The notes beneath the pieces were generated by a model. That model did not search any database and was not told the DNA's origin. It was given only the letters and a program-made list of their open reading frames with translations. Below, piece by piece: positions 14,010-29,252 of a DNA stretch of 63,591 bases; position 1 is the first letter of the stretch; each line of letters opens with the position of its first letter. The position numbers were made by a program, and so were the translations under genes. Where the stretch lies: NCBI GenBank assembly GCA_964347995.1, contig CAYGBA010000002.1, positions 1-63,591 on the forward strand, written 5' to 3'. The stretch is from an uncultured Candidatus Bathyarchaeia archaeon. Lineage in GTDB: Archaea; Thermoproteota; Bathyarchaeia; Bathyarchaeales; Bathyarchaeaceae.

Positions 14010-14435
14010 GTGAAATGTTTGGTTAAAGTAGACGGCTATGAGGTGCCTGAAGGGCTGCATTACCATAAAGAATTCGGATGGGCACGCATAGAAGATGGAA
14101 AAGCGAGAACAGGCATAACAGACTACGCCCAGAAGCAGCTACGTGAAATCGTATTCGTCGAGCTTCCCAGCGCCGGCGACACAGTGACACAGAATGAACC
14201 CTTCGGAACCGTGGAATCCGTGAAAGCTGTTTCAGACCTTGTTGCACCCGTGAGTGGCACGATAGAGGAGGTCAACGAACAGGTGCAGAACAAGCCAGAG
14301 ACCCTCAATGAGGACCCCTATGAAGAAGGGTGGCTTCTGATAATCTCTCCGTCAAACCTCGACGAGGAACTGAAGGCTCTCATGGACCTTGATAAGAGTG
14401 TGGAGTGGCACAAGAAACTGATCAAGGAAGGCTGA
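14010..14435 (+). CDS. gcvH: GcvH-family lipoyl-carrier protein (copy 1)
   Basis: GITDYAQKQL and the lipoyl-lysine motif VESVKAVSDLVAPVSG. The start is uncertain (GTG 14010 or TTG 14019). No gcvT/gcvP in the window. Confidence 0.85.
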   Translation: MKCLVKVDGYEVPEGLHYHKEFGWARIEDGKARTGITDYAQKQLREIVFVELPSAGDTVTQNEPFGTVESVKAVSDLVAPVSGTIEEVNEQVQNKPETLNEDPYEEGWLLIISPSNLDEELKALMDLDKSVEWHKKLIKEG

Positions 14436-14577: not shown

Positions 14578-15417
14578 TCAGTATTCCTTAGGCATCATCT
14601 CAAGCTCTTTGTAACTGAAGACTGGGCCGTCTTTGCACACAAACTTGTTTCCTATGTTACACCTTCCACACTTTCCTATACCGCACTTCATCTTCATCTC
14701 GAGGGACAAGAAGACATCCTCGGGGTGGAAGCCCAGTTCGTTGATAACTGGCATCGTAAACTTTATCATTATAGGTGGACCGCAGACAATAGCGATAGCG
14801 TTGTCTGAGCCTGGGCCAACCTCCTTGAGAACGGCCGGGACAAATCCAACCAATCCAGTCCAGCCAGGGACTTCGCGGTCTATGGTCACGTTGAGGTTGA
14901 TGTCATCCCTCTTCCCCCAGGCTTCAAGGTCATGTTTGTAGATGAGTTCACCTGGATTGCGAGCTCCATAGATGACCGTCAAGTCTTTGAATCTATCTCT
15001 GTTGACCTCATGAAGGATGAAATTCGTTAGAGACCTCAGCGTCGTAAAGGCGAAGCCTCCCCCGACAATAACAACATTTCGGCCTTCCATTCTCTCCATC
15101 GGGAAGCCGTTACCGAATGGCCCCCTAACTCCCACGACAGCCCCTTCCTCATAATTGTGCAGGGCAGTGGTGACGACTCCGACCTTTTTCACAGTGAATT
15201 GAATGTAGTCCTCGTCCATGGGGGATGAGGCTATACCAAGGGGGCACTCTCCGGCACCGAAGATAGAGATCTCCGCGAACTGACCACATCTATACTTGAA
15301 TTTCTTCATCGCTCCTGAATCTTGGAAAACGAGCTCAAACGTCTTAATGTCCTTTACCTCGTTTTCTGTTGTGATTTTTCTGATGACCGTGAGGTTTGGT
15401 ATATACGGGTTGCTCAT
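14578..15417 (-). CDS. FAD/NAD(P)-binding [2Fe-2S] oxidoreductase subunit (HydG/AsrB/FlxA-like)
   Basis: Ferredoxin-reductase-type fold (RCGQF, GPFG, VVIVGGGFAFTTL) and a C-terminal cluster CGIGKCGRCNIGNKFVCKDGP, as in the sulfhydrogenase gamma, AsrB and FlxA families. Confidence 0.8.
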   Translation of the reverse strand: MSNPYIPNLTVIRKITTENEVKDIKTFELVFQDSGAMKKFKYRCGQFAEISIFGAGECPLGIASSPMDEDYIQFTVKKVGVVTTALHNYEEGAVVGVRGPFGNGFPMERMEGRNVVIVGGGFAFTTLRSLTNFILHEVNRDRFKDLTVIYGARNPGELIYKHDLEAWGKRDDINLNVTIDREVPGWTGLVGFVPAVLKEVGPGSDNAIAIVCGPPIMIKFTMPVINELGFHPEDVFLSLEMKMKCGIGKCGRCNIGNKFVCKDGPVFSYKELEMMPKEY

Positions 15418-15420
15418 TTT

Positions 15421-16449
15421 CTACTCCAGCTGCCTAGTTGATATTTCCTCAATTATTTCTCTGATGTCGAGGTTGACGGGACACTCTCTGACGCATCTTC
15501 CACAGCCTACGCAGAGGCTTTCGCCGAAGTTCTTGACGAAGTAGTTGAACTTGTGCATGATCCTCTGTCTCAGCCTCTCCTTTCCTGAAGGTCGAGGGTT
15601 GTGTCCAGAACCCTGTAGTGTGAAGTAAGAAAATTGGCAAGAGTCCCAGATTCTGACTCTTTTCCATTTATCTGTCTCTTCATCTACGATATCGAAGCAG
15701 CAGCAGGTGGGACAAAGGTATGTGCACACTCCGCAATCCACGCACTTCTGGTGTGTCCGGTTCCATATGGGATCGTCGAAAATGGTGTCAAGCTTCTCGC
15801 TCACACCTTCAACGGTTACCTTAGACGTGATGGCTTTCTCAGAGTCTTCGGACAGTTTCTTCGCCTTCTCCAAGTCCCCCTCTTCTGCGTCCTTCAACCA
15901 CGGAATTCTCTCAATAAGTTCCTCGCCTCTTTCGGTCACTGTTTCTATGAGGTACTTGTCGCCTACATCCTGTAGAAGCAAGTCCATGCCTTCTTTTCCA
16001 AAAGGACTTCCTCCTATAGATGTGCAGAAACACGTGCTTAAAGGATGGTTGCACGCCAAGCCGATTGTAGTCGTGTTCCCTCTCTTCGCTAAATAGTACG
16101 AATCTTTCTGTTCCCCAGAAGAGAGGAACTTGTCGAGCAAAACGAAGCCTTTGGCATCGCAGGGGCGGACACCCAGTAACACTGTCTTTCTCTGAGGGGT
16201 TGAGGCTTCCTTGATCTCTACACTTTTTTCGGCGGCTTCATACGTGAACAGAATTTCGTTTTGTGGAAAGAAAACCTCCTTGGGAGGTTTCTTTGTGTTC
16301 CGGAAGTATAGGTAAGCTTCGTCTCCAGAGGACACCCTTTCAAAGGAGACGACATTTTCCCTCGTAACTGGGGCAAAAACCTTGTGCTCTGTGGTCAACT
16401 CTTCGATGAGGACGGGTATTTTGCTCTTTTCTACAACCTTCCATCCCAT
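15421..16449 (-). CDS. 4Fe-4S subunit, HydB/AsrA/FlxB-like
   Basis: CVDCGVCTYLCPTCCCFD and CVGCGRCVRECP. I place the start at ATG 16449 (MGWKVVEK), with GGTG 8 nt upstream and 16 nt after the upstream stop. The track start at 16527 overlaps the previous gene. Confidence 0.75.
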   Translation of the reverse strand: MGWKVVEKSKIPVLIEELTTEHKVFAPVTRENVVSFERVSSGDEAYLYFRNTKKPPKEVFFPQNEILFTYEAAEKSVEIKEASTPQRKTVLLGVRPCDAKGFVLLDKFLSSGEQKDSYYLAKRGNTTTIGLACNHPLSTCFCTSIGGSPFGKEGMDLLLQDVGDKYLIETVTERGEELIERIPWLKDAEEGDLEKAKKLSEDSEKAITSKVTVEGVSEKLDTIFDDPIWNRTHQKCVDCGVCTYLCPTCCCFDIVDEETDKWKRVRIWDSCQFSYFTLQGSGHNPRPSGKERLRQRIMHKFNYFVKNFGESLCVGCGRCVRECPVNLDIREIIEEISTRQLE

Positions 16450-16465
16450 TTGAGACACCGCAATA

Positions 16466-17416
16466 TCACTTGATGAACTCCTGAGAGTCATCCGTCTTGA
16501 ACTCTCCCAACGGCGGAATCTCTTCAAGGCTTAGTCCCGCCTCGTAGTTGTACCGTTCCTTCATGATCTTCTCGGTTTTCTTCACGAGTTCCCTCAAGTC
16601 TATGTCCATGGGACAGGCTCGGCTGCAAGCTCCACAGTCAACGCATCTTCCGGCCACATGAAAGGCGCGGACAATGTGGTAGATCATTGTATCTGTTAGG
16701 TCGTTCGTTTTGCCGAACCAAGCGGGCATGGTCTGGTCTACGAAGCACGTCTTGCAGTAGCAGAGGGGACAGACATTTCTGCAAGCGTAGCACCTGACGC
16801 ACTTGCTTAATTCTTCCTTGAAGTGGATCCACCTTTCTTCCGCCGACTTCGACTCTAAGTCTGAAACCCTAGTGAATTCATCGACATCCGTCGTTTCAGG
16901 CACTTTTTCGCCTACAAGCACATCGTAGATAGGGGGATTTCTGTGTCTGCAGGTTAGGCATGAGTCACAAATGAACCCTCTTTTCGGTAGAACAAACTCG
17001 AAACCTTCCCCCTTGACCTTGATTTGTTCGCCCTCAACGGTGGCTTCCAAAGCTTCTTTGCCGTCAAGCTTTGCCTCTACTTTTTTCCTGTCAATGAGTC
17101 CTAGGCAGGGGACGCCTATGATAACTACATTTTCTCTCGAAATCTGTTTTTCAACAGCACAAACAGCTATCGCGCGCGCGTCGCAGCCCTTTGCGACGAC
17201 TCCAATCTTTCCCGCTCTGCCTACTAGGTACTTCGAAAGATTAGCGTCACAACTTACGTTCCAAACGAGCTTTTGAACATCTTCCAATTTGTCCACGAAG
17301 CAGGGAGTGGCGAGAAGCGGCAGTGTTCCTTGCTCGTATCCAATTATAAGGTCGACTTTCTTCTCGCTGAGAAGCTTTTTGGCGACCTCTCTTATTGGAT
17401 TTTCAAGGTCTTCCAT
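16466..17416 (-). CDS. iron-sulfur protein, FlxC-like (two ferredoxin-type 4Fe-4S motifs plus extra Cys cluster)
   Basis: CVRCYACRNVCPLCYCKTC, CVDCGACSRACP and CDSCLTCRH. It sits between the MvhD and HydB-like genes, as in flx clusters. Confidence 0.65.
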   Translation of the reverse strand: MEDLENPIREVAKKLLSEKKVDLIIGYEQGTLPLLATPCFVDKLEDVQKLVWNVSCDANLSKYLVGRAGKIGVVAKGCDARAIAVCAVEKQISRENVVIIGVPCLGLIDRKKVEAKLDGKEALEATVEGEQIKVKGEGFEFVLPKRGFICDSCLTCRHRNPPIYDVLVGEKVPETTDVDEFTRVSDLESKSAEERWIHFKEELSKCVRCYACRNVCPLCYCKTCFVDQTMPAWFGKTNDLTDTMIYHIVRAFHVAGRCVDCGACSRACPMDIDLRELVKKTEKIMKERYNYEAGLSLEEIPPLGEFKTDDSQEFIK

Positions 17417-17422
17417 ATTGCA

Positions 17423-17860
17423 TTACCTCTTCACCAGTCTTTCGGCAGGTCCCAGGGCCTTCACCTTTTCTACCACGTCCCTCACAACATTGGCAAACTT
17501 TTCACCTTCAGCAGCAGAGACCCACGAGAAGTTCAACCTTCCAGACTCAATTCCAAGGTATTCCAGTAGATCCTTCAGGACAGCGAATCTCCTTCTAGCC
17601 ACGAGGTTTCCGCTGATGTAGTGACAGTCGCCAGGATGACATCCAGAGACTAAGACTCCGTCCCATCCGCGCTGCAGGGCTTTCATAATGAAATAGGGGT
17701 TGACTCTTCCAGAGCAGGGGACTCGGACGACCCTTATGTTTGGGGGATACTGCATCCTGCTTATTCCTGCTAGGTCTGCCCCAGCGTAGCTGCACCAGTT
17801 GCATAGGAAAGCTAGTATTCTTGGGTTCCATTCCTTTTCGGCAGGTTTCACTCCAGTCAC
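17423..17860 (-). CDS. mvhD: MvhD/FlxD-type [2Fe-2S] protein (methyl-viologen-reducing hydrogenase delta subunit domain)
   Basis: FLCNWCSYAGADLAG...VVRVPCSGRV...SGCHPGDCHY. I start it at GTG 17860, which overlaps the hdrA stop as GTGA. The 212-aa track ORF extends into hdrA. Confidence 0.85.
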   Translation of the reverse strand: MTGVKPAEKEWNPRILAFLCNWCSYAGADLAGISRMQYPPNIRVVRVPCSGRVNPYFIMKALQRGWDGVLVSGCHPGDCHYISGNLVARRRFAVLKDLLEYLGIESGRLNFSWVSAAEGEKFANVVRDVVEKVKALGPAERLVKR

Positions 17861-20800
17861 CTCAACGCACTTATGATGAGGTTCATCTGCATGTCCGTGA
17901 AGCCCTTGATATCTATTGCCGAGCACCTGCATGTAGCGGCACAGGCTCCGCAACCCTTGCAGAGGGCGGCGTTCACCTTTGCTATTTTCCCCCTCTTTGT
18001 TTCTTCGATCTCTATGGCGTTGTAGGCGCATACTAGCATGCAGAGCTCGCATGCTGTGCATCTGTTCGAATTGACAGTGGCGACGATTCCCTCAGCCTCA
18101 ATAGTATCTTTTGTCAGCAGCGTACACGCTCTAGACACCGCGGCCTTCGCTTGAGAGATGCTCTCTTCTATGGATTTCGGCGAGTGAGCCATGCCACATA
18201 CGAAGATGCCTTCTGTTGCAAAGTCAACGGGCCGAAGCTTGGCGTGCGCCTCTAGGAAGAAGCCATCTTCGTTTATGGGAACCTTCAGCATCTTGGCTAG
18301 AACCTCGTTTTCTTCTGGTGGAACGATAGCTGCGCTTAGAACGATGTGGTCTGCATCTATCATGATGTCCTCTTGGATGGTCGGTTCAAAAACTGATACC
18401 TGCAACACTTCTTTTCCTCCTGACGCGGCCTTAGTAACCCTTGGCTTTTTTTCCTCTTCGTAGCGGATGAAGACCACTCCAGCCTCTCGAGCCCTTCTGT
18501 AGTGTTCTTCCATTAGACCATAGGTTCTGACATCTCGGCAAAGAACGTACACGTTAGCCTCCCGATCTTGCTCTTTTATTTTCAGGGAGTTCTTGACCGC
18601 CTCTCCACAGCACATTCTACTGCAGTATGGATGTTCATCATTCCTAGACCCTACGCACTGGATCATCACCACGTTGCCGAACTTCTCGTTGCCAGCAGTT
18701 GCGATTCTGTTCTCCAATTCCAGCTGCGTAAATACACGAGGATCTTTTCCATAGAGGTACTCGTTCGGATGATATTCTTTGCCTCCGGTAGCCACGATGA
18801 TAACTCCGTGCTCCAACTCTCTTTTCACTTTGCGGCCCGAGTTTAGAGCTACGGTAGTTTTGAAGTTCCCCACATAGCCGGAGACGTTCTCCACATTTGT
18901 GTTGAGGAAGATCTTGATCATCTTGTTTGCGTATACGTTTTCAATCATGGTTCTTAGGTACTCTTGGGTATCATCGTTGTCCAGCGTGTAGTGTATTTTG
19001 CGGAGGAAACCTCCAAGCTCTTTGTTCTTCTCTACTAAATCGATCTCAAAGCCTTGCTCGGCCAAGGCTAGAGCCGCGGTCATTCCTGCCAATCCTCCTC
19101 CGATGACGAGGCCTCGACGGGTGACACCTAGAGAAGGCCTCTCTAGGGGCTCTATCACTCGAGCCTTAGCCACCGCCATTCTCACCAAGTCCTTCGCCTT
19201 TTCGGTAGCTGCCTTGTGATCGTGCATGTGCACCCAAGAACACTGGTCGCGGATATTTGCCATCTCGAAGAGGTACCTGTTCAGTCCAGTTTCCCTTATT
19301 GTTTCTTGGAAGAGGGGTTCGTGGGTTCGGGGTGAACATGAGGCCACTATAACTCTGTTTAGTCCGTGTTCTTCGATTCTATTCTTGATTATCTCTTGAG
19401 TGTCTGAGGAGCATGTGTAGAGGTTGTCGCATGCATGGACGACGTTTGGCAGAGTTTGAGCATACTCCAAAACGCTTTGGACATCAACAACTCCTCCGAT
19501 ATTGATGCCACAGTGACAAATGAAGACGCCTATTCTGGGTGGCTGACCCCTAACATCCAGCTCTTTTGGATACTCCTTTTTCTTGACTAGGGTTCCTCGG
19601 GCGGAGGATAGCAATTCGCCCACGCTGGAAGCGGCAGCGCTGGCTTGTGTAACGGTTTCGGGAATATCCTTGGGTGAGGAGAACATGCCGCAGACGAAAA
19701 CTCCTGGTCTAGAGGTTTCTAGGGGATGAAACGCTTGGGTTTTCGAGAAGCCGTGCTCGTTCAGCTCCACATCGAGGTTTTTAGCCAGCTTCTTAGCGTT
19801 CTCGGATGGTGTGAAGCCAATCGAAAGGACAACTAGGTCGAACTCTTCCTCCAGGAGTCTTCCATCTTCTGCATCGTATCTGATTCGCAGGTTCTTTGTC
19901 TTGGGTATCTCCTCTACTCCGGACACCCTGCACCTGACAAACCTAACTCCATATTCTTCCTTAGCCCTCTCAATATACTTGTCGAAATCCTTCCCATAGG
20001 CACGCATGTCTATATAGAAGATGGTAGGTTCAATCTGGCTCATGTGCTCTCGGGCTATAACTGCCTCCTTTGTGGAGTACATGCAACAAACCGAAGAGCA
20101 GTAGCCGCTTCCACATGTTACATCTCTAGAGCCGACGCACTGTATGAAAGCGATCTTTCTCGGGATATCTCCGTCTGAGGGCCTCTGCACACGCCCCGTG
20201 AAAGGTCCGGAAGCGCTCAAGATGCGCTCGAACTCGATGCTCGTGACCACGTTGGTGTATCTTCCGTAACCGTACTCGCTCTTCAGTTTGGCGTTAAACT
20301 CCTCAACGCCGGGGGCGAGAATCACAGCGCCAACGTTCAGCCTTATTTCTTTCTCTTGATCTGTGTAGTTTATGGCGTCGGCCAGGCAAATGTTCTTGCA
20401 GAGTCCACAGCCCACACACTTTTCTCTGGCGATCATGTATACCAAGGGAACGGCTTGAGGGTAGTTGATGTGAATTGCTGTTCTCTCGCTTAGGCCTTTG
20501 TTGAAGGTATCTATGGCGTCGACTGGACAGAATTTGGCGCACAGCCCACATCCTGTACACTTTTCGATGTCAACGTATCTGGGGCGTTGTTTCAATGAGA
20601 CGATGAAGTTGCCTTCCTCTCCAGAAATCTCGGTAACTTCGGAACATGTCAAAGCCTCAACATTCAGGTGTCTTCCGCACTCCACGAGTTTTGGGGATAG
20701 AATGCACATGGAGCAGTCGTTCGTTGGAAAGGTTTTGTCTAGCTGTGCCATGACCCCGCCTATAGCCGGAGAGTTATCCACCACGTAAACCTTGAAACCT

Positions 20801-20904
20801 GACTCCGCCAGGTCGAGCGCAGCCTGTATTCCTCCAATTCCCCCACCCACAACCAACACTGAACCGACTTTGCCTGATTCAGAAACCGGGTTTTGCGAGT
20901 TCAT
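17857..20904 (-). CDS. hdrA: double-module HdrA-like flavoprotein (1015 aa; a fusion collinear with the two separate genes at 23398-24690 and 21717-23390)
   Basis: N module: VVGGGIGGIQAALDLA, FPTNDCSMCILSPK. C module: IGVFICHCGINIGG, VIGGGLAGMTAALALA and the C-terminal CTACELC...CKGCGACAATC. It aligns end to end with the 430-aa plus 557-aa neighbours. Confidence 0.85.
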   Translation of the reverse strand: MNSQNPVSESGKVGSVLVVGGGIGGIQAALDLAESGFKVYVVDNSPAIGGVMAQLDKTFPTNDCSMCILSPKLVECGRHLNVEALTCSEVTEISGEEGNFIVSLKQRPRYVDIEKCTGCGLCAKFCPVDAIDTFNKGLSERTAIHINYPQAVPLVYMIAREKCVGCGLCKNICLADAINYTDQEKEIRLNVGAVILAPGVEEFNAKLKSEYGYGRYTNVVTSIEFERILSASGPFTGRVQRPSDGDIPRKIAFIQCVGSRDVTCGSGYCSSVCCMYSTKEAVIAREHMSQIEPTIFYIDMRAYGKDFDKYIERAKEEYGVRFVRCRVSGVEEIPKTKNLRIRYDAEDGRLLEEEFDLVVLSIGFTPSENAKKLAKNLDVELNEHGFSKTQAFHPLETSRPGVFVCGMFSSPKDIPETVTQASAAASSVGELLSSARGTLVKKKEYPKELDVRGQPPRIGVFICHCGINIGGVVDVQSVLEYAQTLPNVVHACDNLYTCSSDTQEIIKNRIEEHGLNRVIVASCSPRTHEPLFQETIRETGLNRYLFEMANIRDQCSWVHMHDHKAATEKAKDLVRMAVAKARVIEPLERPSLGVTRRGLVIGGGLAGMTAALALAEQGFEIDLVEKNKELGGFLRKIHYTLDNDDTQEYLRTMIENVYANKMIKIFLNTNVENVSGYVGNFKTTVALNSGRKVKRELEHGVIIVATGGKEYHPNEYLYGKDPRVFTQLELENRIATAGNEKFGNVVMIQCVGSRNDEHPYCSRMCCGEAVKNSLKIKEQDREANVYVLCRDVRTYGLMEEHYRRAREAGVVFIRYEEEKKPRVTKAASGGKEVLQVSVFEPTIQEDIMIDADHIVLSAAIVPPEENEVLAKMLKVPINEDGFFLEAHAKLRPVDFATEGIFVCGMAHSPKSIEESISQAKAAVSRACTLLTKDTIEAEGIVATVNSNRCTACELCMLVCAYNAIEIEETKRGKIAKVNAALCKGCGACAATCRCSAIDIKGFTDMQMNLIISALR

Positions 20905-20937: not shown

Positions 20938-21720
20938 TCACCCTTCAGCTCTTCGATACTTGGGGCTGTTTTCTTCGATTCCCACGACGGAGACTAGTCC
21001 GTCGCGCTCGAGAGAGACTATGTTTCTCAGCACTTCCCTTGGTGAAGCTTCCACTTTCTGGGCTATCTCTTTGACAGAGAGAGCGTCTTCTCTAATTGAG
21101 AGGAGAATCCTTCTTTTTGCAAACTCTTTTTCGACGGTTTGGTGCATCAGGTGGTCGAACTCTTCTTGTGGCACCTTCTCCCCGAAGACGTTCTTGTCTT
21201 CTACCAGCGCTCTTTCTCTGCCCATAAGCCATCTAATCCTTTCCAGGGCGAGAGCTTCCTTGGCCGCAACCAAGCGCGTCCTCAACTGTGGTGGCTCCAG
21301 GGTTGTTTCTTTGCCAAGCTGACCTAGTTTTCTTATTCTTTCTGTGAAATCTTTCACCAGCGTTGCAAAACGTTCACCCTCCGCCGCGGACACCCAATCA
21401 ACCAACAGTCGATCAGAAGACAAACCTGTGTTCTTCAGGACCTTTTTCGTCGTCTTCATCCTTCTTTCCGCGTAGTAGTTTCCGGTCATGTAGTGACAAG
21501 TTCCTAGGTGGCAGCCCAGGACCATGACGCCGTCTAGCCCTTGAATGAAAGCTTCAAGAATGATCGTTGGGTCAACCCTTGCTGAACACATCACCCTAAT
21601 GATCTTCACGTTAGGAGGGTACTGCATACGACTGACCCCCGCCAAATCCGCACTGGCGTAGGAGCACCAGTTGCAGAGAAAACCAACAATGTCTGGTTCA
21701 AAGCTTTTTTGAGAAGTCAA
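20938..21720 (-). CDS. mvhD: MvhD-domain protein with a ~125-aa C-terminal extension ending in a winged-helix-like motif
   Basis: FLCNWCSYASADLAG...IIRVMCSARV...LGCHLGTCHY, then ...ALSVKEIAQKVEASPREVLRNIVSLERDGLVSVVG. Probable TTG start at 21720, overlapping the hdrA stop as TTGA. Confidence 0.75.
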   Translation of the reverse strand: MTSQKSFEPDIVGFLCNWCSYASADLAGVSRMQYPPNVKIIRVMCSARVDPTIILEAFIQGLDGVMVLGCHLGTCHYMTGNYYAERRMKTTKKVLKNTGLSSDRLLVDWVSAAEGERFATLVKDFTERIRKLGQLGKETTLEPPQLRTRLVAAKEALALERIRWLMGRERALVEDKNVFGEKVPQEEFDHLMHQTVEKEFAKRRILLSIREDALSVKEIAQKVEASPREVLRNIVSLERDGLVSVVGIEENSPKYRRAEG

Positions 21721-23390
21721 AGCTTCACCTCCGCTAGGGCAATTACCTGTGCAAGAAGTTGCTCGTCTGTAAAGTGTCTCATGGTGATCGCCCTCTGGGG
21801 GCAGCCGGCACCACATGCCCCACAACCCTTACAGGAGGCAGCTATTATCCTGGCTTTCCTTCCCTTCTCGGTTTCTTCGACTTGGATCGCTTTGAAGGGA
21901 CAGGTCAGCTCGCACAAGCCGCACCCTGAGCATTCGTCTTCATCAATCACTGGGATCAGGGGTTCGGTTTTCACACGTCCAACTGACATAGGTATAGACG
22001 CTCGAGAAGCTGCGCCATACGCTTGAAAAATACTCTCGCCGATATTGGCTGGCCAGTGGGCGCAGCCACACACATATATGCCGTCTGTTGCGAAGTCAAC
22101 GGGGCGAAGTTTCACGTGGGCCTCTAGGAAGAAGCCGTTCTCATCCACTGGCACTTTCAGTTTTTGCGCTAGATCGGCGGAGTCAGGGTGGGCGACCATT
22201 GGGGTGGACAGCACGACAAGGTCGCACGGCAGGGTCAGTTCTTCGCCCAAGAACTCATCATAAACTCTCACCGATCCGTCCTCGACGACTGGTTCCCTTT
22301 CTGCCGAATATTTTATGAACGTTATGCCAGTTTCTCTCGCTTTTCCATAATAGTCCTCATAGATTGTCCCCTGAGCCACCATATCCTTGTAGAGTAGGAA
22401 AACCTGGGCATCTGGTTTGGTTCCCATAATCAGCATGGCGTTTTTTAGGGCAGTTGGACAGCAAACCTTAGAGCAGTAGGTTCTCTTTTTGCTTCTAGAC
22501 CCTACACATTGAATCATCACAATCGTTTCAGCGGTGAGCCTTCCTTCTTTAAGCATTTGTTCCAGCTCCATCTGGGTGACGACAGTCTCTCCATTGTAGC
22601 CATACATGCCTACAGGCTTGAACGTCTCGGCGCCTGTTGCCACTATTATCACCCCGGCCCTGAATAACCTCTCTTTTTCTCCCTGCGTTACCGTGACGTC
22701 ATAGTTACCAACAAAACCCTCAACTGCTTCAACTGCGGAAGATGTCAAGATTTCGATCTTCGGGTTCTTCTCAATCTCCTTGATCTTCAATTGGACCAAC
22801 CTTGAGGCTGCTTCGTTAGTTGGGTAGAGTTTGTAGAGGCGACTTAGAGTTCCGCCTAACTGGCTCTCCTTTTCTACCAGCTTCACCTCAAAGCCTCGGT
22901 TGGCTAGGCTGAGCGCACAGGTCATTCCCGCGATTCCTCCGCCAATCACCAAAGCACAGGGGTTGACCTCAACCTCGGTCTCTTCCAGGGGCTCCAACAA
23001 CGCAGCTTTTGCGACTCCCATCCTTATGAGAGTCTTCGCCTTTTCGGTTGCTCTCTCCCTTTCTTGCATGTGAACCCAAGAGCACTGATCCCTTATGTTG
23101 ACGAACTGAAACAAGTAGGGGTTAAGCCCTGCCTCGTTGCAGGTTGACCTGAACAGGGGCTCGTGGGTTCTGGGGGTGCAGGAGGCAACAACTACACGGT
23201 TCAGCTTGTTTTCAGTCACAGCGTTCTTTATCTCTGTCAATCCAGCCTCGGAGCAGGTATACTGGTTGTCCTTTGCGAAGACAACGTGTGGCAAGTTCAA
23301 GGCATATTTGGCGAGACTCGGGACGTCCAGAAAACCTCCTATGTTTGTGCCGCAGTGACAGACGAAAACACCGACTCTCACTTCATCCAA
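21717..23390 (-). CDS. hdrA: HdrA-like flavoprotein, classical module (557 aa)
   Basis: VGVFVCHCGTNIGG, VIGGGIAGMTCALSLA and the C-terminal ferredoxin motifs CSGCGLCELTCP / CKGCGACGAGCP. TTG start at 23390 with GGTGA 7 nt upstream. Confidence 0.85.
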   Translation of the reverse strand: MDEVRVGVFVCHCGTNIGGFLDVPSLAKYALNLPHVVFAKDNQYTCSEAGLTEIKNAVTENKLNRVVVASCTPRTHEPLFRSTCNEAGLNPYLFQFVNIRDQCSWVHMQERERATEKAKTLIRMGVAKAALLEPLEETEVEVNPCALVIGGGIAGMTCALSLANRGFEVKLVEKESQLGGTLSRLYKLYPTNEAASRLVQLKIKEIEKNPKIEILTSSAVEAVEGFVGNYDVTVTQGEKERLFRAGVIIVATGAETFKPVGMYGYNGETVVTQMELEQMLKEGRLTAETIVMIQCVGSRSKKRTYCSKVCCPTALKNAMLIMGTKPDAQVFLLYKDMVAQGTIYEDYYGKARETGITFIKYSAEREPVVEDGSVRVYDEFLGEELTLPCDLVVLSTPMVAHPDSADLAQKLKVPVDENGFFLEAHVKLRPVDFATDGIYVCGCAHWPANIGESIFQAYGAASRASIPMSVGRVKTEPLIPVIDEDECSGCGLCELTCPFKAIQVEETEKGRKARIIAASCKGCGACGAGCPQRAITMRHFTDEQLLAQVIALAEVKL

Positions 23391-23397
23391 GTCCTTG

Positions 23398-24690
23398 TCA
23401 CCTCATTACCGTTTCTGCAGCTCTCTCGGCGGCTCCACTCGCTTGGGCTACGGACTCTGGTATATCAGTTGGTTCTCGGCAGCAACCGCACACAAATATT
23501 CCCGGCCTTGTCGCGTCCAGTGGGTTGAGGGGATCTGTCTTGAAGAAGTTATATTCGTCAAGCTCGACGTCCAAGACTCTTGCCAGTTCTTTCACGCCTC
23601 TCCTCGGCATCAGGCTTGTGGCCAAAACCGCTAGATCAGCGATCATTTCCTTTGTTTTGGAGCTTTGGGATTCTTCATACCAAACTATGGGATTCTCGTC
23701 ATGATCTTCGGTGATCTTGGCTACTCTTCCTCTGATATACGATATGTTGTACTCTTGCTCTCCTCGTGCCACGTACTCTTGAAAGCCTTTGCCCGCGGCT
23801 CTGAGGTCCATGTAAAATATGCAAGATTTCACCTTGGGGCTGTGTTCGTAGGCAAGCATAGCCTCCTTGGTTGCGTGCATACAGCAGACGGATGAGCAGT
23901 AACGGTTGTTGTTGAAGTCTCTAGACCCGACGCACTGGACGAAAGCTATTTTCTCTGCAGGCTTGTTGTCTGAAGGCCTCAGGAGATGTCCTCCGGTGGG
24001 TCCTGAAGCGCACATCAGTCTCTCGTATTCCAAAGATACGATGACATTCCTGTACCTTTTGTACCCATACTGGGGGATTCCAGACGGATCGTAGGGGTCA
24101 TAACCAGTAGCGACAACAATGGCGCCAACGTGCAACATTACGTCTGTGTCTTTCTGCTCAAAATCTATTGCCTCTCTGGTGCAGAATTTTTCGCAAATTC
24201 TACACACGCCTCGCGTTAGGTAGAGGCAGTTTTCCCTGTCAAGGGTCATGACCGCTGGAACACCTTGCAGGTAGTATGGATATATGGCCTCCCTCTTTCT
24301 CAGTTTCATATCAAACTCGTCAGGCACCTTTACGGGGCACTTTGCAGCGCAATCCCCACAGTTGACACACTTCTCTTCGTCAACAAATCTGGCATACTTG
24401 CGTAACTTCACTGAGAAATTTCCTATCTGTCCCGTTACTTCTTTGACTTCTGATAGTGTGTAGAGGGTGATGTTTGGGTGTCTGAAGCAATCAGCGAGTT
24501 TTGGGGATAGTATGCATATGGAGCAATCGTTTGTGGGAAAAGTTTTGTCGAGTTGAGCCATTCTTCCTCCTATACTCGGCTTTCTCTCAACCAGATGTAC
24601 CGTTATTCCCATATCTCCGAGGTCGAGGGCTGCCTGAATCCCCGCTATTCCACCACCAATGACCAGAACCGATTTAGGCTTTTCCTTCAA
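23398..24690 (-). CDS. hdrA: HdrA-like flavoprotein, N-type module (430 aa)
   Basis: VIGGGIAGIQAALDLG, FPTNDCSICILSPK and an inserted ferredoxin CVNCGDCAAKCP. It is collinear with the first ~440 aa of the 1015-aa fusion. Confidence 0.8.
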   Translation of the reverse strand: MKEKPKSVLVIGGGIAGIQAALDLGDMGITVHLVERKPSIGGRMAQLDKTFPTNDCSICILSPKLADCFRHPNITLYTLSEVKEVTGQIGNFSVKLRKYARFVDEEKCVNCGDCAAKCPVKVPDEFDMKLRKREAIYPYYLQGVPAVMTLDRENCLYLTRGVCRICEKFCTREAIDFEQKDTDVMLHVGAIVVATGYDPYDPSGIPQYGYKRYRNVIVSLEYERLMCASGPTGGHLLRPSDNKPAEKIAFVQCVGSRDFNNNRYCSSVCCMHATKEAMLAYEHSPKVKSCIFYMDLRAAGKGFQEYVARGEQEYNISYIRGRVAKITEDHDENPIVWYEESQSSKTKEMIADLAVLATSLMPRRGVKELARVLDVELDEYNFFKTDPLNPLDATRPGIFVCGCCREPTDIPESVAQASGAAERAAETVMR

Positions 24691-25825
24691 GGATCTGTCC
24701 TCCAGCCAACTCCGAGAGCCTCTCCTTTGCTCTCATCTTCTTTCTTCTAGAAAAGGAGACAATCTTTGCCAGCATCTTCGTCTTCTCTAGCTTACTCTCC
24801 TCAGCATCTCTGAAAGCTCTCTCTTGAATGTAGCCCTTACGAAGGGCTCCGTCGAGGACTGATGCGCCCATCTTTGTCCTCAAAAGGGTTGTAGTGTATC
24901 CATCTGGCGAACCAAGTCCTCCGACCGAAATGTCTGCGTACTCGTTACTGAAGTCGTGACACGTCAAACATGCTGGGCGAGCAACTTCGTGCACCTCTTC
25001 AAGCGGAACATGAATTGTCACGCCCTTGGTGAGCGTAATTATAAAGTCGTCCTTGATGTTCAGTTTTACAACATCCTCCAGATTGACATCGAGTTTCTTC
25101 TCCAACCGCTCCCTTGCCACGTCATCAAAAGAGAAATTCTCTATGCAAAACAGCCCTATCGCATATTTTATGAGGTGAGCTGGGAGTATCCCGAGGCATT
25201 GCATCTTTCGGATCGCGTTGATCTGGCAGGGAGTTCCAACCACCGCTATGTCCCGCAAATATTTTTTCTCTAGGCTCTTTATAGTGGACAGGATCGGAGT
25301 GTAGGTAGTGTATTTTCCTCCCAACTCTTCTAAATGGAGGGATCCTGAGAACGTGGAGCCTGTTGCTTCTATGAGTTCCTCAGGAGTTCTGGCGATTGTT
25401 GCCTTTCTGGCGAAGCGCCCGATCTTCTTTGAGACTACGGCGCCATTTATCAAGTTGCGATCCAGCAAGTATAGGAGGAGGGAGGTCACCACACCTCCGT
25501 CTGTGCAAATCTCCTTTACCTCCTTATTCGTCGTCTGAGCGGAGGTTATCCTCTGAAAATCGCCCATGGGCGGCTTCCAACCAAACTTTTCTTGAAGCTC
25601 TGCGTCTAACGTATCTGTTTGGGGGCATATGAGGTAGCAGATTCCGCATTTTAGACAGTTATCTTCATTGATGTATCGTGGTAGTTCGTTCTTGCCCATC
25701 TCTAGGGCGTTGAGTTCTCCCGCTGAGCAAAAGGAGATGCAGCCACCACACTTACCGCATATTCCTTTCTCAACAACTTCTATGGCTAGGTCCTTGAATG
25801 ACTTAATCTCCTCCATAGCAACCAA
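24674..25825 (-). CDS. FrhB-family protein (coenzyme F420 hydrogenase/dehydrogenase beta-like) with N-terminal 2x[4Fe-4S] ferredoxin
   Basis: CGKCGGCISFC and CLKCGICYLICP are followed by FrhB-type regions, including AVVGTPCQINAIRKMQ and CHDFSNEYADISVGG. Confidence 0.75.
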   Translation of the reverse strand: MVAMEEIKSFKDLAIEVVEKGICGKCGGCISFCSAGELNALEMGKNELPRYINEDNCLKCGICYLICPQTDTLDAELQEKFGWKPPMGDFQRITSAQTTNKEVKEICTDGGVVTSLLLYLLDRNLINGAVVSKKIGRFARKATIARTPEELIEATGSTFSGSLHLEELGGKYTTYTPILSTIKSLEKKYLRDIAVVGTPCQINAIRKMQCLGILPAHLIKYAIGLFCIENFSFDDVARERLEKKLDVNLEDVVKLNIKDDFIITLTKGVTIHVPLEEVHEVARPACLTCHDFSNEYADISVGGLGSPDGYTTTLLRTKMGASVLDGALRKGYIQERAFRDAEESKLEKTKMLAKIVSFSRRKKMRAKERLSELAGGQILEGKA

Positions 25826-25960
25826 ACCTTGGACCGTTACTATAGTTTTACACCATTATTTAGGAATTTCTTGTATTCAAATTGGAAAACAACAAATATA
25901 AAGAAGGCGTGTGACCCTATAGTTTCTCGCGAAGCAGAAAAGTCTAGGAGAGATTCTAGG
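25826..25960. promoter_or_regulatory. divergent intergenic region between the frhB-like operon and the CoADR-like gene
   Basis: 135 bp, AT-rich, with TATA-like runs (CTATAGTTTTA, AAATATAAAG). This applies only if the + gene starts at TTG 25961. No transcription data. Confidence 0.3.
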
Positions 25961-27313
25961 TTGCCTAGGAAAATAGTAATAGTCGGCGCTAACGCTGCTG
26001 GTGTTCATGCAGCAAACGCAGCCCGCAAAGCCGATCCCAAGGCACAAATAACATTAGTAGATAAGGAGCCATATCCAGCCTACTCTCGCTGCGGTATACC
26101 ATACGTACTGGCCGGTGAGATACCAAGTTTTGATGACCTCACAGCCTTTCCTCCAACCCACTATAGGATGATGAAGTTTGACCTACGCCTTGAAACCAAG
26201 GCGAGATCTATCAATCCCGATGACAAAATTGTTCTGATCGAAGACAAGGAAGGAAACTTTGAAGCACTGAAATATGACTCATTGATCCTCGCCACCGGTG
26301 CTGATCCATTCATCATACCGATTGAAGGTCGTAACCTTCCAGGGGTGTTTGCAATGAGGACGGTGAATGACGGAAGGGGAATTCAAGAGGCTATGAAGAC
26401 GGCCAAAAGCGCGGTTGTTATCGGTGCTGGATTCATTGGTTTGGAAACCGCGCATGCTCTTGCAACGAACAAAATTGAGACTGCGATCATTGAGGTAGTG
26501 CCATACATTCTTCCCGCATTATTTGATGAAGACATGGCTGACTACACGCAGAAGAAAATTGAAGAACAAGGTGTTAAGGCGATGGTAGGTCGGCGAGTCG
26601 ATGCAATTCTAGGAAAAGACAAGGTTGAAGGCGTAAGCGTAGGCGGCGAAGAAGTAAAAGCAGATATCGTTGTCATGGCCGCAGGCATCAGACCTAGAAC
26701 AGACTTGATAAGAGGACTAGGAGTAGAACTAGGCGTAACCAGAGCTATTAGAGTGAACCCAAGAATGGAAACCAGTGTTTCCGGCATATTCGCAGCTGGA
26801 GACTGTGTTGAATCCCAAAGCTCGATCACAGGGCTCCCCTGCCTCTACCAACTTGGAACCAACGCAGTCAGGCAAGGAACAACGGCTGGAATAAACGCCG
26901 CGGGAGGATACGCTGCCAATCCACGCGTCATTTGCAGCGCAGTTTCAAAAATCTTCGATTTCGAACTCGGAGCAGTAGGTCTCTCAGAGTATCAAGCCGC
27001 CAAGATTGGTTTCCAAACGGTCAGTGCAAGCATCACGGGAAGAACGCGAGCGGCATATTTCCCGGGAGGAAAAGAGGTTAGGGTAAAAGTTATTGCCGAG
27101 CCTGTTTTGGGTAGAATTATGGGAGCCCAGCTAGTCGGTGGGGAAGATGTGGCGCAGAGAGTTAACATGCTCTCTGTGGCTATACAAAAGGAAATGACGG
27201 CATTAGAGCTTTCGACGGCGGATACGAGTTATGCTCCTCCAGTTGCTGAGACTGTGGAACCTGTGGCGACAGCCGCGGAGATTGTCGCAAAGAAGATACG
27301 GCGGCGTAGGTAG
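25961..27313 (+). CDS. pyridine nucleotide-disulfide oxidoreductase, CoA-disulfide reductase / NADH oxidase / NSR-like
   Basis: IVIVGANAAGVHAA (FAD GxGxxG), single redox Cys in YSRCGIPY, VVIGAGFIGLETA (NAD) and FAAGDC. There is no ATG. I favour TTG 25961 (TAGGAGAG upstream) over the track TTG at 25829. Confidence 0.75.
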   Translation: MPRKIVIVGANAAGVHAANAARKADPKAQITLVDKEPYPAYSRCGIPYVLAGEIPSFDDLTAFPPTHYRMMKFDLRLETKARSINPDDKIVLIEDKEGNFEALKYDSLILATGADPFIIPIEGRNLPGVFAMRTVNDGRGIQEAMKTAKSAVVIGAGFIGLETAHALATNKIETAIIEVVPYILPALFDEDMADYTQKKIEEQGVKAMVGRRVDAILGKDKVEGVSVGGEEVKADIVVMAAGIRPRTDLIRGLGVELGVTRAIRVNPRMETSVSGIFAAGDCVESQSSITGLPCLYQLGTNAVRQGTTAGINAAGGYAANPRVICSAVSKIFDFELGAVGLSEYQAAKIGFQTVSASITGRTRAAYFPGGKEVRVKVIAEPVLGRIMGAQLVGGEDVAQRVNMLSVAIQKEMTALELSTADTSYAPPVAETVEPVATAAEIVAKKIRRRR

Positions 27314-27379
27314 GAACCTTCATTAGGCGCTGATCTCCCGCGCATGAGGAGATGTTGTGGACTGCTGAAGGTTAAATGA

Positions 27380-27850
27380 ATGAAAGTTGACTCATACGAC
27401 ATTCCTGAAAATTGCTACTATATTAAAGAACACGAGTGGATCTTAATAGAAGACACTGACACCGCAAGAATCGGCATCACAGACTATGCTCAGAAAGCGT
27501 TGAGGGAGATCACATACTTTTACGCAGGGAAGAGAGGCGCTGAAATCAAACGGATGGAAACAATGTGCAAAATAGAGTCAGTAAAAAGTGTTGCTGAGAT
27601 ATTGAGTCCCCTCACTGGCGTGGTTCTTAGGTTTAATAACGGACTATTCGACCAACCTAGTATCATAAATAATGACCCTTATGGCAAGGGTTGGATAACA
27701 ATCATCCGCCCCACAAACCTTGACAAGGAGCTAGAAAAACTACTAAAACCAGAACTCTATGCGGAGCATATCAAAGAACTCACCAAAAGCGATGAAACTT
27801 TACTGATTCACAGATGGAAAAAGGGAATAGAGGAAAAAACCCGCGAATAG
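27380..27850 (+). CDS. gcvH: GcvH-family lipoyl-carrier protein (copy 2, with C-terminal extension)
   Basis: GITDYAQKAL and KIESVKSVAEILSPLTG retain the lipoyl-lysine. Its stop is only 11 nt from the convergent hdrB stop. Confidence 0.8.
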   Translation: MKVDSYDIPENCYYIKEHEWILIEDTDTARIGITDYAQKALREITYFYAGKRGAEIKRMETMCKIESVKSVAEILSPLTGVVLRFNNGLFDQPSIINNDPYGKGWITIIRPTNLDKELEKLLKPELYAEHIKELTKSDETLLIHRWKKGIEEKTRE

Positions 27851-27861
27851 AAAGGCTTAAA

Positions 27862-28737
27862 CTAAACACCAAGCCTGCCTAGTAAATCGGACGTTTTCAC
27901 TCGGTTCATGTCCAACCCTAACCCTTTTGGGTCCATTCCAAGAGCAAGTCCAAGGACTTGTGGGTAAAATAGTACAGGCAGGTTATAGGCGGTATTGAAC
28001 CTCCTCTGTATCACCCTCTGATTTCTATCGTACATAGAGCCGCACAGTGGGCACATCAGAACCATCGCGTCGGCTTCCATTGCCTTGACATGGTCAAGTT
28101 TCCTTTGAGCCATTGCCATCGCAATCTTATCGTCGACGTCCAGAATTACACCGCCACAACACTGCGTCTTATCCTCGTATTCAATAGTCTCCGCGCCAAG
28201 TGCAGAGACAAGTTCATCCAGGGTCCTCGGAAACTCGGGATCCTCGAATCTGTCAAAAACATCTGACGGCTTAATATAGTGGCATCCGTAATGCGAGGCT
28301 AACTTGAGTCCCTCCAAGCTGTGTTTGACCTGGCTCTTTATCTTTTCAGGACCAACGTCTTCGTATAGAATTCGCACGAAGTGCCTAGCTTTGACATTTC
28401 CCTTGTAGGCACGACCTATTTTCTGCAGTTTCTCGTTTGCGTTTTCCCTCAATTCATTATTGTGCATCAGCTCTTTACTGGCTTCTGCTAGCATGGAGGC
28501 GCAACCTGTACAAATCGTACATATGTCTAGGCCCATGGCTTCGGCAACGCTTAGGTCTCTAGCAGCAAGAAGCAAAGCTGTTTCTTGGTCTACAGATCTT
28601 ATTGGGAAGCCACAACAGGCGAAGCCGTCTGTGTCAATGAGTTCCACTCCAAGTTTTTCGGCAACCTTCCTCGCTGAAAGCTCATATTGCCTGGCCATTA
28701 GAGGTGCGAGGCATCCTAAGAAAAGGGCGTACTTCAC
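27862..28737 (-). CDS. hdrB: heterodisulfide reductase subunit B-like (two CCG domains)
   Basis: MKYALFLGC...FACCGFP and TQCCGG...CPLCG. GTG start overlaps the hdrC stop as GTGA. Confidence 0.85.
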   Translation of the reverse strand: MKYALFLGCLAPLMARQYELSARKVAEKLGVELIDTDGFACCGFPIRSVDQETALLLAARDLSVAEAMGLDICTICTGCASMLAEASKELMHNNELRENANEKLQKIGRAYKGNVKARHFVRILYEDVGPEKIKSQVKHSLEGLKLASHYGCHYIKPSDVFDRFEDPEFPRTLDELVSALGAETIEYEDKTQCCGGVILDVDDKIAMAMAQRKLDHVKAMEADAMVLMCPLCGSMYDRNQRVIQRRFNTAYNLPVLFYPQVLGLALGMDPKGLGLDMNRVKTSDLLGRLGV

Positions 28738-29252
28738 CTTGTGTCCCTTCCTTCGGCCCCTAGCGGTTTGAAGCCTGCCTGCTCAAGGAGCTCCTGAACC
28801 TCCTTGTTTTCAGATGGAATTTGTGGCAATCCAAGTTCTTCTCGTTTTGTGTTGTCGAAACGGCTCAGAGGGTACAGTGTGCCGTGTGTCGATATGATCT
28901 CCATTCGCTTGGCAAATGAGTTGTGAATGCGGCCCTCCTTGACTGCCAGATTTTTCAAAGCGGTCATAAATTCGGGTATCCTAACATCCTGTGGGCACCG
29001 CTCCTGACAAGTGTAACACTCAGAACACAGCCATATGAAGTCGCTTGAAAGGACCCTTTCCCTCATACCTAGCACGGTCATCCGTATGATCCTTCTGGGG
29101 TTATACTTCTCTTCTATCTCCCTAACAGGGCATCCGACGTTGCATGTTCCACACTGGAAACATCTCATTATGTTCTGCCCTCCAGGAATCTTTGTGACTT
29201 CATATTTGAACTTAGGGTCAAGTTTGGTGATCACCAAAGCAGTTCTCTCCAC
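28734..29252 (-). CDS. hdrC: heterodisulfide reductase subunit C-like (2x[4Fe-4S])
   Basis: CFQCGTCNVGCP and CSECYTCQERCP; the size is typical of HdrC. Confidence 0.85.
   Translation of the reverse strand: MERTALVITKLDPKFKYEVTKIPGGQNIMRCFQCGTCNVGCPVREIEEKYNPRRIIRMTVLGMRERVLSSDFIWLCSECYTCQERCPQDVRIPEFMTALKNLAVKEGRIHNSFAKRMEIISTHGTLYPLSRFDNTKREELGLPQIPSENKEVQELLEQAGFKPLGAEGRDTR

Follow-up and report, generated by a model that had tools for sequence, protein, structure and literature searches.

The subject of this work is a group of genes for lipoyl carrier proteins and redox enzymes in a 63,591-nucleotide stretch of DNA, hereafter the window, from a Bathyarchaeia contig (CAYGBA010000002.1) of an assembly of 1.6 Mb that is 87% complete (G000). 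Two genes of the window, which we call H1 and H2, encode homologues of GcvH, the H protein of glycine cleavage; a flavoprotein gene, PNDOR, precedes H2, and genes for heterodisulfide reductase (Hdr) and Flx-like subunits lie in the same region. Comparison with other Bathyarchaeia shows two paralogous modules of a lipoyl carrier and a flavoprotein, the pair H1-then-PNDOR, which is common in the taxonomic order of the window, and the diverged pair PNDOR-then-H2. The link of the carrier genes to this set of Hdr and Flx genes is recurrent and withstands rearrangement. It is plausible, as a tentative reading, that the dithiol/disulfide handled by Hdr in this organism is a lipoyl group carried by a GcvH protein.

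The gene map of the window is based on its open reading frame (ORF) listing and on Pfam scans. H1 (14010-14435, plus strand) starts with GTG and encodes a lipoyl-lysine H-protein homologue of 141 amino acids (GCV_H, 1.5e-37), and H2 (27380-27850, plus strand) encodes a diverged lipoyl-lysine paralogue of 156 amino acids (GCV_H, 4.2e-34). A preliminary description of this DNA had placed both genes at these positions, with the motifs VESVKAVSD and KIESVKSVAE, and had stated that both keep the lipoyl lysine, and the sequence bears it out: the E-S-V-K turn is read in both proteins, as VESVKAV in H1 and IESVKSV in H2, and the lysine is kept in all orthologues. Both proteins are true GcvH-family carriers with a lipoyl lysine. 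On the NCBIfam gcvH models H1 scores 135.6 and H2 118.7 with TIGR00527 (cut-off 115.85), so that H2 barely passes, and 149.2 and 132.9 with NF002270 (cut-off 117). The isoelectric point (pI) of the whole protein is 4.59 for H1 and 5.74 for H2; in the H2 clade it ranges from 4.95 to 8.7 with a median of 6.6, against about 4.7-4.87 for H1 and the gcvT-linked copies. H2 has a 20-residue C-terminal extension and carries its lysine in the context CKIESVKSVAE; its cysteines are Cys12 and Cys63, with none near the C-terminus, and the single cysteine of H1 is at residue 3. The closest homologues of H2 (73-96% identical) come from Bathyarchaeota/Bathyarchaeia metagenome genomes. A search of the PDB gave GcvH chains and nothing else. 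Trees were built from GcvH proteins of Bathyarchaeia and a few others, each marked with its gene context. In them H1 falls into a clade of H1/PNDOR-linked copies with support of 93-95 in the Shimodaira-Hasegawa-like approximate likelihood ratio test (SH-aLRT), and the H2 clade, with a support of 100 and a long stem of 0.88, lies among gcvT-linked sequences in the first tree. To judge from these sequences, H2 diverged in its stem, its basic shift and its likewise diverged PNDOR as if its partners had changed. H1 has the look of a carrier with a dual or general use, and H2 that of a specialised one.

The gene we call PNDOR (25961-27313, plus strand; Pyr_redox_2, 4.4e-60, plus a dimerisation domain) ends 66 nt before H2 on the same strand. 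Its start at 25961 is a TTG with GGAG about 10 nt upstream, and an ORF that begins farther upstream, at 25829, is the less probable version of the gene. In an alignment of 59 orthologues Cys44 in the motif YSRCGIPY is invariant and no CxxxxC pair is present; a second invariant cysteine belongs to the FAD motif AAGDC. The protein is a single-cysteine member of the group that comprises NADH oxidase (Nox), CoA-disulfide reductase (CoADR) and NADH peroxidase (Npx), its best solved relatives being 6pfz (NoxA-3), 6ruz and 4fx9 (CoADR). It shares with 4fx9, 6pfz and 1joa the fold, the S-x-x-C redox cysteine and the FAD and NAD(P)H motifs, but its scores lie under the equivalog cut-offs (334.4 bits against 578.8 for the CoADR model TIGR03385, and 133.8 against 408.8 for the class I Lpd model TIGR01350), and unlike the longer persulfide reductases among its structure matches it has no rhodanese domain. 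The preliminary description had called it CoADR/NSR-like with a single redox cysteine; the family and the cysteine stand, whereas the CoADR model excludes an equivalog. Its conserved genomic partner is also different, being a lipoyl protein, which suggests that its disulfide substrate is not that of the CoADR/Nox group, and we propose that PNDOR is an NAD(P)H-linked partner of lipoyl-GcvH. The window PNDOR is 49% identical to the H1-linked PNDORs (47-54% for those that follow H1 orthologues in the named loci described below), which are 65.5% identical among themselves.

We compared 80 named loci from a genome collection. In about 45 of them an H1 orthologue is followed within tens of nucleotides by PNDOR, and the flanks of these loci hold housekeeping genes (MIPS, GAPDH, PGK); these and similar conserved neighbours rule out that H1-PNDOR is a lipoylation or gcv operon. 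A further set of the named loci contains the canonical gcvT-gcvH pair. Orthologues of H2 (74-81% identical) were found in four species, all with the arrangement frhB | PNDOR H2, and hdrB and hdrC are convergent with H2 in three of the four. The H2|hdrB arrangement persists in the window's own lineage (L025-L027, L165). One locus of that lineage, L027, has the order PNDOR, H2, hdrBC, GAPDH, PGK, where the usual order is H1, PNDOR, GAPDH, PGK, and it would follow that the window locus stands at the ancestral H1-PNDOR position, into which the Hdr genes were brought. The fourth of these species, a 1.18-Mb relative deposited as 'complete' (G001, CP070826.1; locus L118, G001:C1:1079000-1098999), has PNDOR and H2 intact; the H2 orthologue is its only GcvH, and gcvT is also present. 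The hdrB of this genome is split: a 70-residue remnant (residues 221-290) lies beside H2, and residues 1-48 are found at a distance of about 495 kb. Its frhB breaks off at residue 297, and H1 was not found. The broken hdrB and frhB possibly reflect genome reduction or a misassembly, as this is a metagenome assembly.

The most instructive loci come from two other families. A locus of family f18 (L173) holds, all on one strand, hdrA-mvhD, an H1-clade GcvH, hdrC, hdrB, frhB, hdrA-N, hdrA-C and mvhD-HTH, with one short opposite-strand ORF between hdrA-mvhD and the GcvH gene; the identities to the window are 63% for hdrC, 64% for hdrB, 78% for frhB, 82% for hdrA-N, 79% for hdrA-C and 78% for mvhD-HTH. 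The same genome has, at a second locus (L199), flxA (70%), a convergent PNDOR (68%), an H2-type carrier and a second PNDOR. The 68% PNDOR, which precedes the H2-type GcvH, forms with the window PNDOR a clade with a support of 100. In family f24 (L198) the fused hdrA (71%), mvhD (83%), flxC, flxB and flxA (69%) are followed by an H2-type GcvH on the same strand, 37 nt after flxA. The Hdr, Flx and carrier genes have thus stayed linked through several rearrangements and are co-oriented in these two families. It is mainly because the gene set persists together across rearrangements that we favour a functional coupling in spite of the convergent genes of the window. A hint of a further recurrent carrier partner was seen in loci of other families (L140, L156, L189), where a two-gene flxB/flxA-like NAD(P)H module, resembling AsrAB/HydBG, lies no more than about 1.5 kb from a GcvH; no HdrA was detected in the stretch fetched.

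The association is also seen in the class as a whole. From 80 evenly drawn Bathyarchaeia genomes (81 with this one; 28 families) we retrieved 120 GcvH loci, and a single tblastn panel served to score them; 124 GcvH-like genes were classified in this way. GcvH was present in 73 of the 81 genomes, often in 2-5 copies. Of the 124 genes 29 lie beside gcvT or gcvP, 17 beside PNDOR and 13 beside Lpl genes, and 21 have an Hdr-type gene within 3 kb; these classes overlap for some genes, and 49 genes fall in none of them. The 21 Hdr-adjacent genes are spread over 18 genomes and 13 of the 28 families. Not one of the 29 copies linked to gcvT or gcvP is among them, against 21 of the other 95. The co-occurrence of GcvH-like and hdr genes in archaea, which the preliminary description had proposed to count, is accordingly above expectation in Bathyarchaeia (21/124 against about 6%): in the Hdr-rich genome of the window only 5.8% of the sequence is no farther than 3 kb from an Hdr-type gene, and the nominal binomial p of the excess is 9e-6, to be read with the reserve that relatives are not independent.

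Several groups of carriers can be told apart in the tree of this sample. The clade of H1 and PNDOR-linked copies has 24 members (support 95). A group with SH-aLRT 94 unites H2 with carriers of two other families; its members are all basic (pI 5.7-9.8) and lie beside Flx, Hdr or PNDOR genes. A clade of 33 carriers with the motif ESGKWVGPLK has Hdr genes nearby in 14 cases, Lpl genes in 10 and gcv genes in none; it has no member in the present assembly, which is 87% complete. These carriers (among L178-L237) are mostly neutral to basic, never stand beside gcvT, and are often found in one operon with a fused Lpl, an hdrA-mvhD fusion, hdrB and hdrC (such as in L220, L225 and L237). No match to gcvT was obtained in 30 of the 81 genomes, 10 of which have an H1-clade GcvH; eight of these ten are 95-100% complete. 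Altogether 22 of the 30 still have at least one gene of the GcvH family. These gene contents suggest that lipoyl carriers are widely used outside glycine cleavage in Bathyarchaeia. Each of the 16 genomes sampled from the window's taxonomic order has a PNDOR orthologue, and in the whole sample PNDOR is found in none of the 8 genomes without GcvH against 44 of the 73 with it (Fisher p = 0.0012, in a comparison in which kin are not independent).

What else does the genome offer to a lipoyl carrier? The assembly has four GCV_H matches, namely H1, H2 and two tandem genes on contig C31. The C31 pair has no lipoyl lysine, which leaves H1 and H2 as the only carriers of the assembly able to be lipoylated. 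The preliminary description had noted that gcvT and gcvP are missing from the window and had recommended a search of the rest of the genome for them and for lipoylation genes; gcvT is on C36 and gcvPA/PB on C15, both unlinked to the carriers, and the lipoylation genes too are on contigs other than that of the window. True Lpd genes are at C69:5955-7379 and C11:5201-6628 (784 and 779 with NF004947, cut-off 592), and these two genes rule out PNDOR as the only candidate for the L protein. LplB/LplA are encoded on C88 and a second LplA on C10. About 6 kb from this LplA, at C10:12024-14126 (L114:217-2319), there are divergent genes for the radical-SAM lipoyl synthase LipS2/LipS1, both above their NCBIfam cut-offs. 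LipA was searched for in the genome and not found, LipS1/LipS2 being present instead, and by its genes the lipoate assembly is of the archaeal kind (Lpl plus LipS1/S2).

The tandem GcvH-fold genes of C31 open the second Hdr operon of the genome, the order of which is two lysine-less GcvH-fold genes, a GltD-like gene, mvhD-HTH, fused hdrA, mvhD, hdrC and hdrB. The operon is shared with two other genomes and its arrangement is kept in other genera (L115, L116, L234), and since this operon carries GcvH-fold genes we count it for the link between carriers and Hdr. The lysine-less proteins may be regulators of Hdr operons. Their genes (L019:4215-4784 and 4816-5412) have ETWW/ETWM in place of ESVK, and their products carry about 55 additional, conserved residues at the N-terminus (…SEFVSEAIRLRL…), an extension which gave us the unverified impression of a ribbon-helix-helix. 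Pfam returned no significant match for the extension, and the AlphaFold model computed from 7 sequences was of too low a quality to be useful, with a mean predicted local distance difference test (pLDDT) score of 45.6.

The Hdr subunits that could receive the carrier are encoded next to H2. The product of hdrB (27862-28737, minus strand) has two CCG domains (CCG, 3.6e-29), and hdrC (28734-29252, minus strand), upstream of hdrB, encodes the two-[4Fe-4S] subunit (Fer4_8, 2.1e-10). The ten cluster cysteines of HdrB (C9, C41, C42, C76, C79, C152, C193, C194, C229 and C232) are all invariant or nearly so in an alignment of 98 homologues. HdrB scores 294.9 with TIGR03288 (cut-off 345.15) and HdrC 119.5 with TIGR03290 (cut-off 160), both below; by its sequence HdrB looks active but not specific for coenzymes M and B (CoM/CoB). 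A predicted fold of HdrB, HdrC and H2 together scored 0.45 against 0.13 for the best control, with at least 47% of the contacts in common between runs and a partner pLDDT of at least 81. In the calibration of this measure 58 of 80 solved complexes attained the mark, as did 2 of 110 mismatched pairs; at scores of 0.60 or under it was attained by only 7 of those 80 and by both mismatches. The model thus shifts the odds slightly towards a contact between HdrBC and H2 and lends it weak support.

We hypothesize that the lipoyl group of H2, and perhaps also that of H1, would act as a protein-bound dithiol/disulfide that is turned over at the noncubane clusters of HdrB. HdrC, HdrA, MvhD, Flx and FrhB would connect the lipoyl couple to ferredoxin and to NAD(P)H or F420, and PNDOR would give this lipoyl pool a direct connection to NAD(P)H through a mixed disulfide at Cys44. 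The glycine cleavage proteins encoded elsewhere in the genome probably use the same carriers. The potential of the lipoamide couple is about -0.29 V, close to that of NADH, and for this reason the likeliest direction is confurcation, in which reduced ferredoxin and dihydrolipoyl-GcvH would together reduce NAD(P)+ or F420, rather than a bifurcation driven by NADH, which is unlikely with lipoyl-GcvH. Alternatively, ferredoxin might drive the reduction of lipoyl-GcvH. In a wider form of this hypothesis, to which we give rather less credence, GcvH lipoate would be a general cytoplasmic electron carrier independent of glycine cleavage, served by PNDOR and by Flx/HdrABC, and would be the 'heterodisulfide' of Hdr in these non-methanogens.

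Several observations speak against a lipoyl substrate of Hdr. The carriers of the window are convergent with the Hdr and Flx genes, H1 with flxA and H2 with hdrB, and are not transcribed together with them. The intact PNDOR-H2 pair of G001 beside a fragmented hdrB implies that the pair is independent of this Hdr. Outside the lineage of the window Hdr genes lie within 10 kb in 2 of about 46 H1-PNDOR loci, which is about chance on an estimate of roughly 8 CCG loci per 1.6 Mb, and in family f17 PNDOR is present but does not adjoin a GcvH. With the potential given above, lipoamide is a poor high-potential acceptor for bifurcation. Both carriers score above the gcvH equivalog cut-offs, they branch on the side of the tree with the gcvT-linked GcvH and outside the Lpl- and Hdr-linked ESGKWVGPLK clade, and, with gcvT, gcvPA/PB and two Lpd in a genome in which only H1 and H2 bear the lysine, glycine cleavage must depend on one of the two at least. 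The preliminary description had suggested a lipoyl couple as the substrate of HdrBC, and this idea keeps the recurrent tie between carriers and Hdr and the lipoylation genes on its side but has the GcvH-type scores and the convergent genes against it. The idea was to be given up if both carriers clustered with canonical GcvH and their adjacency to Hdr was not conserved in relatives; the trees do place both carriers on the side of GcvH, but relatives have kept the adjacency.

Could the Hdr and Flx genes merely adjoin PNDOR and GcvH, sharing at most a common regulation with them? The pair would then be a self-contained lipoyl relay driven by NAD(P)H, either as an alternative L protein or as a thiol relay that feeds peroxidases or other disulfides. 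The pair is indeed widely conserved without Hdr nearby, it persists in genomes without gcvT and it is intact in G001 in spite of the broken hdrB. There are also precedents for such relays: in the hydrogenosomes of Trichomonas the H and L proteins act with OsmC, Mycobacterium has a relay of Lpd, SucB, AhpD and AhpC, and in Eubacterium acidaminophilum thioredoxin reductase replaces the L protein. However, a relay of this kind leaves unexplained the same-strand GcvH in the orthologous Hdr/Flx operons of two other families, the class-wide excess of Hdr beside those GcvH copies that are not linked to gcvT or gcvP, and the lysine-less GcvH-fold genes at the head of Hdr operons, and we consider it rather unlikely. 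Less likely again is the view that H1 and H2 simply belong, as ordinary H proteins, to a scattered gcv set for glycine cleavage or glycine synthase and came to stand beside Hdr genes by a lineage-specific accident of rearrangement. Their model scores, the gcv and Lpd genes elsewhere with no other lysine-bearing H protein in the assembly, the gcvT of G001 with the H2 orthologue as its only GcvH and the convergent orientation all agree with this view. Like the H and L proteins of glycine cleavage, too, H1 and H2 pass the GcvH models, keep the lipoyl lysine and have a disulfide-reductase flavoprotein beside them. But PNDOR is a single-cysteine protein and not a CxxxxC Lpd, true Lpd are encoded elsewhere, and the H1 clade persists in ten genomes in which no gcvT was found. 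Nor does the view account for the long branch of H2 and its apparent loss of the acidity of GcvH, for a gene set that is linked in other families in different arrangements, or for Hdr genes near 21 of 95 copies outside gcvT/P linkage and none of 29 within it.

The other substrate named in the preliminary description, a CoA-based disulfide or persulfide in place of lipoate, with PNDOR as CoA-disulfide or CoA-persulfide reductase, gained nothing from the analysis. PNDOR lies near hdrBC, CoADR and CoA-persulfide reductase are among its best matches by family and by structure, and it has the single active-site cysteine; yet it falls far under the CoADR cut-off (334 bits against 579), lacks the rhodanese domain, and has GcvH as its conserved neighbour in two independent paralogous pairs, so that we hold a CoA substrate to be improbable. 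Most improbable of all is that the locus is an archaeal sulfur-oxidation system of the sHdr-LbpA type. In both a lipoyl protein homologous to GcvH is genetically tied to CCG iron-sulfur proteins of the HdrB/HdrC type, GcvH homologues adjoin Hdr-like genes, the genome has the archaeal LplAB-LipS1/S2 route, and H2, to judge by the pI of the whole protein, seems to have lost its acidity as LbpA has. LbpA proteins are distinguished in the literature by two cysteines close to the termini and by a surface that is basic, not acidic, and the N- and C-terminal cysteine pair is absent from the sequences of H1 and H2. The cluster moreover has no DsrE, TusA or rhodanese, its lipoylation genes are unlinked, HdrA is accompanied by MvhD, Flx and FrhB modules of the sort usual in bifurcating complexes of anaerobes, and a Nox/CoADR-type flavoprotein is a constant neighbour. 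The only DsrE and TusA genes of the assembly are on contig C33, where a DsrE-like gene and TusA form an adjacent pair (C33:12012-12733) unlinked to any Hdr locus examined.

A lipoyl-bearing GcvH as partner of Hdr is not a new idea. The sulfur-oxidising sHdr-LbpA system was reportedly the subject of a study by Cao et al. in 2018, and for the FlxABCD-HdrABC of Desulfovibrio Ramos et al. are said to have proposed DsrC as the partner in 2015. The window resembles the latter in having FlxA-D-like genes with HdrA and HdrBC, but here the conserved neighbours are lipoyl carriers. The same difference separates it from HdrA2B2C2 of Methanosarcina acetivorans, with which it shares an FrhB-like F420-type module and a fused double HdrA, and the partner of which is CoM-S-S-CoB according to Yan et al. 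2017 as cited in PMC9723716. In sHdr-LbpA the partnership of lipoate and Hdr is established (Tanabe et al. 2023, PMC10332631; Kumpel et al. 2026 preprint, 10.64898/2026.10.01.755906), and for Culexarchaeia Kohtz et al. 2022 (PMC9723716) suggested GcvH as a disulfide carrier for HdrB; these two anticipate the idea discussed here. The Culexarchaeia, like the present archaeon, are non-methanogens without CoM/CoB, and gcvH lies inside their Ehe hydrogenase-HdrBC-GcvH cluster. That cluster, however, has a membrane [NiFe]-hydrogenase with SdhA and CdhA, whereas the window has cytoplasmic Flx, HdrA and FrhB modules, two carriers and a dedicated flavoprotein, and the Culexarchaeia paper contains no survey or test of the GcvH-HdrB idea (PMC9723716). 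In the literature searched, which does not cover all journals, we found no paper on the Bathyarchaeial GcvH-PNDOR pair or on its link to Flx/Hdr. New in the present work are the pairing of the H1 clade with a flavoprotein, the persistence of this clade in genomes in which no gcvT was found, the second, diverged and more basic pair of H2 and PNDOR, the GcvH genes inside orthologous operons and the excess of Hdr genes near GcvH across the class.

Hdr complexes are common among anaerobes that do not synthesise coenzymes M and B, and the identity of their substrate in such organisms is an old question. If lipoyl-GcvH is the answer in this case, the partnership of lipoate and Hdr known from aerobic sulfur oxidisers would extend to the anaerobic energy metabolism of archaea that rank among the most abundant in sediments, and the flavoproteins of the Nox/CoADR type would gain a new class of substrate. 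With H1, H2 and PNDOR, three small expressible proteins, and the HdrBC pair, the hypothesis is open to direct biochemistry.

The remaining genes of the cluster form an operon on the minus strand, of which frhB is the first gene and the flxA/B/C-like genes are the last. The FrhB-like subunit (24674-25825; FrhB_FdhB_C 1.1e-39, FrhB_FdhB_N 2.5e-15) is followed by a split hdrA, its N-part at 23398-24690 and its C-part at 21717-23390, by mvhD-HTH (20938-21825), a fused double hdrA (17857-20904) and mvhD (17423-18061). The HdrA proteins have the Pyr_redox_2 plus Fer4 architecture, and the two mvhD-type genes match FlpD at 4e-56 and 2e-54. The flxC-like (16466-17416), flxB-like (15421-16527) and flxA-like (14578-15417) genes carry between them the Pfam domains NAD_binding_1, DHODB_Fe-S_bind and Fer4_22; their best NCBIfam models are HydG/AsrB-like and ShyB/AsrA-like, all below cut-off, and by these matches the three genes would be an input module with NAD(P)H, FAD, [2Fe-2S] and further FeS sites. 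At the far end of the operon H1 and the flxA-like gene converge, with 142 nt from stop to stop, and on the other side the stop of H2 (TAG, 27848-27850) and that of hdrB (27862-27864) are 11 nt apart; the preliminary description had given both convergences and the distance of 11 nt correctly. It had also said that the carriers bracket the Hdr genes, which is literally true of their positions, but the arrangement is not operonic, each carrier being opposite in strand to the adjacent Hdr or Flx gene. PNDOR-H2 diverges from the frhB-to-flxA operon across an AT-rich spacer of 135 nt (25826-25960), read directly from the sequence, and this spacer is a candidate for a common control region of the operon and PNDOR-H2.

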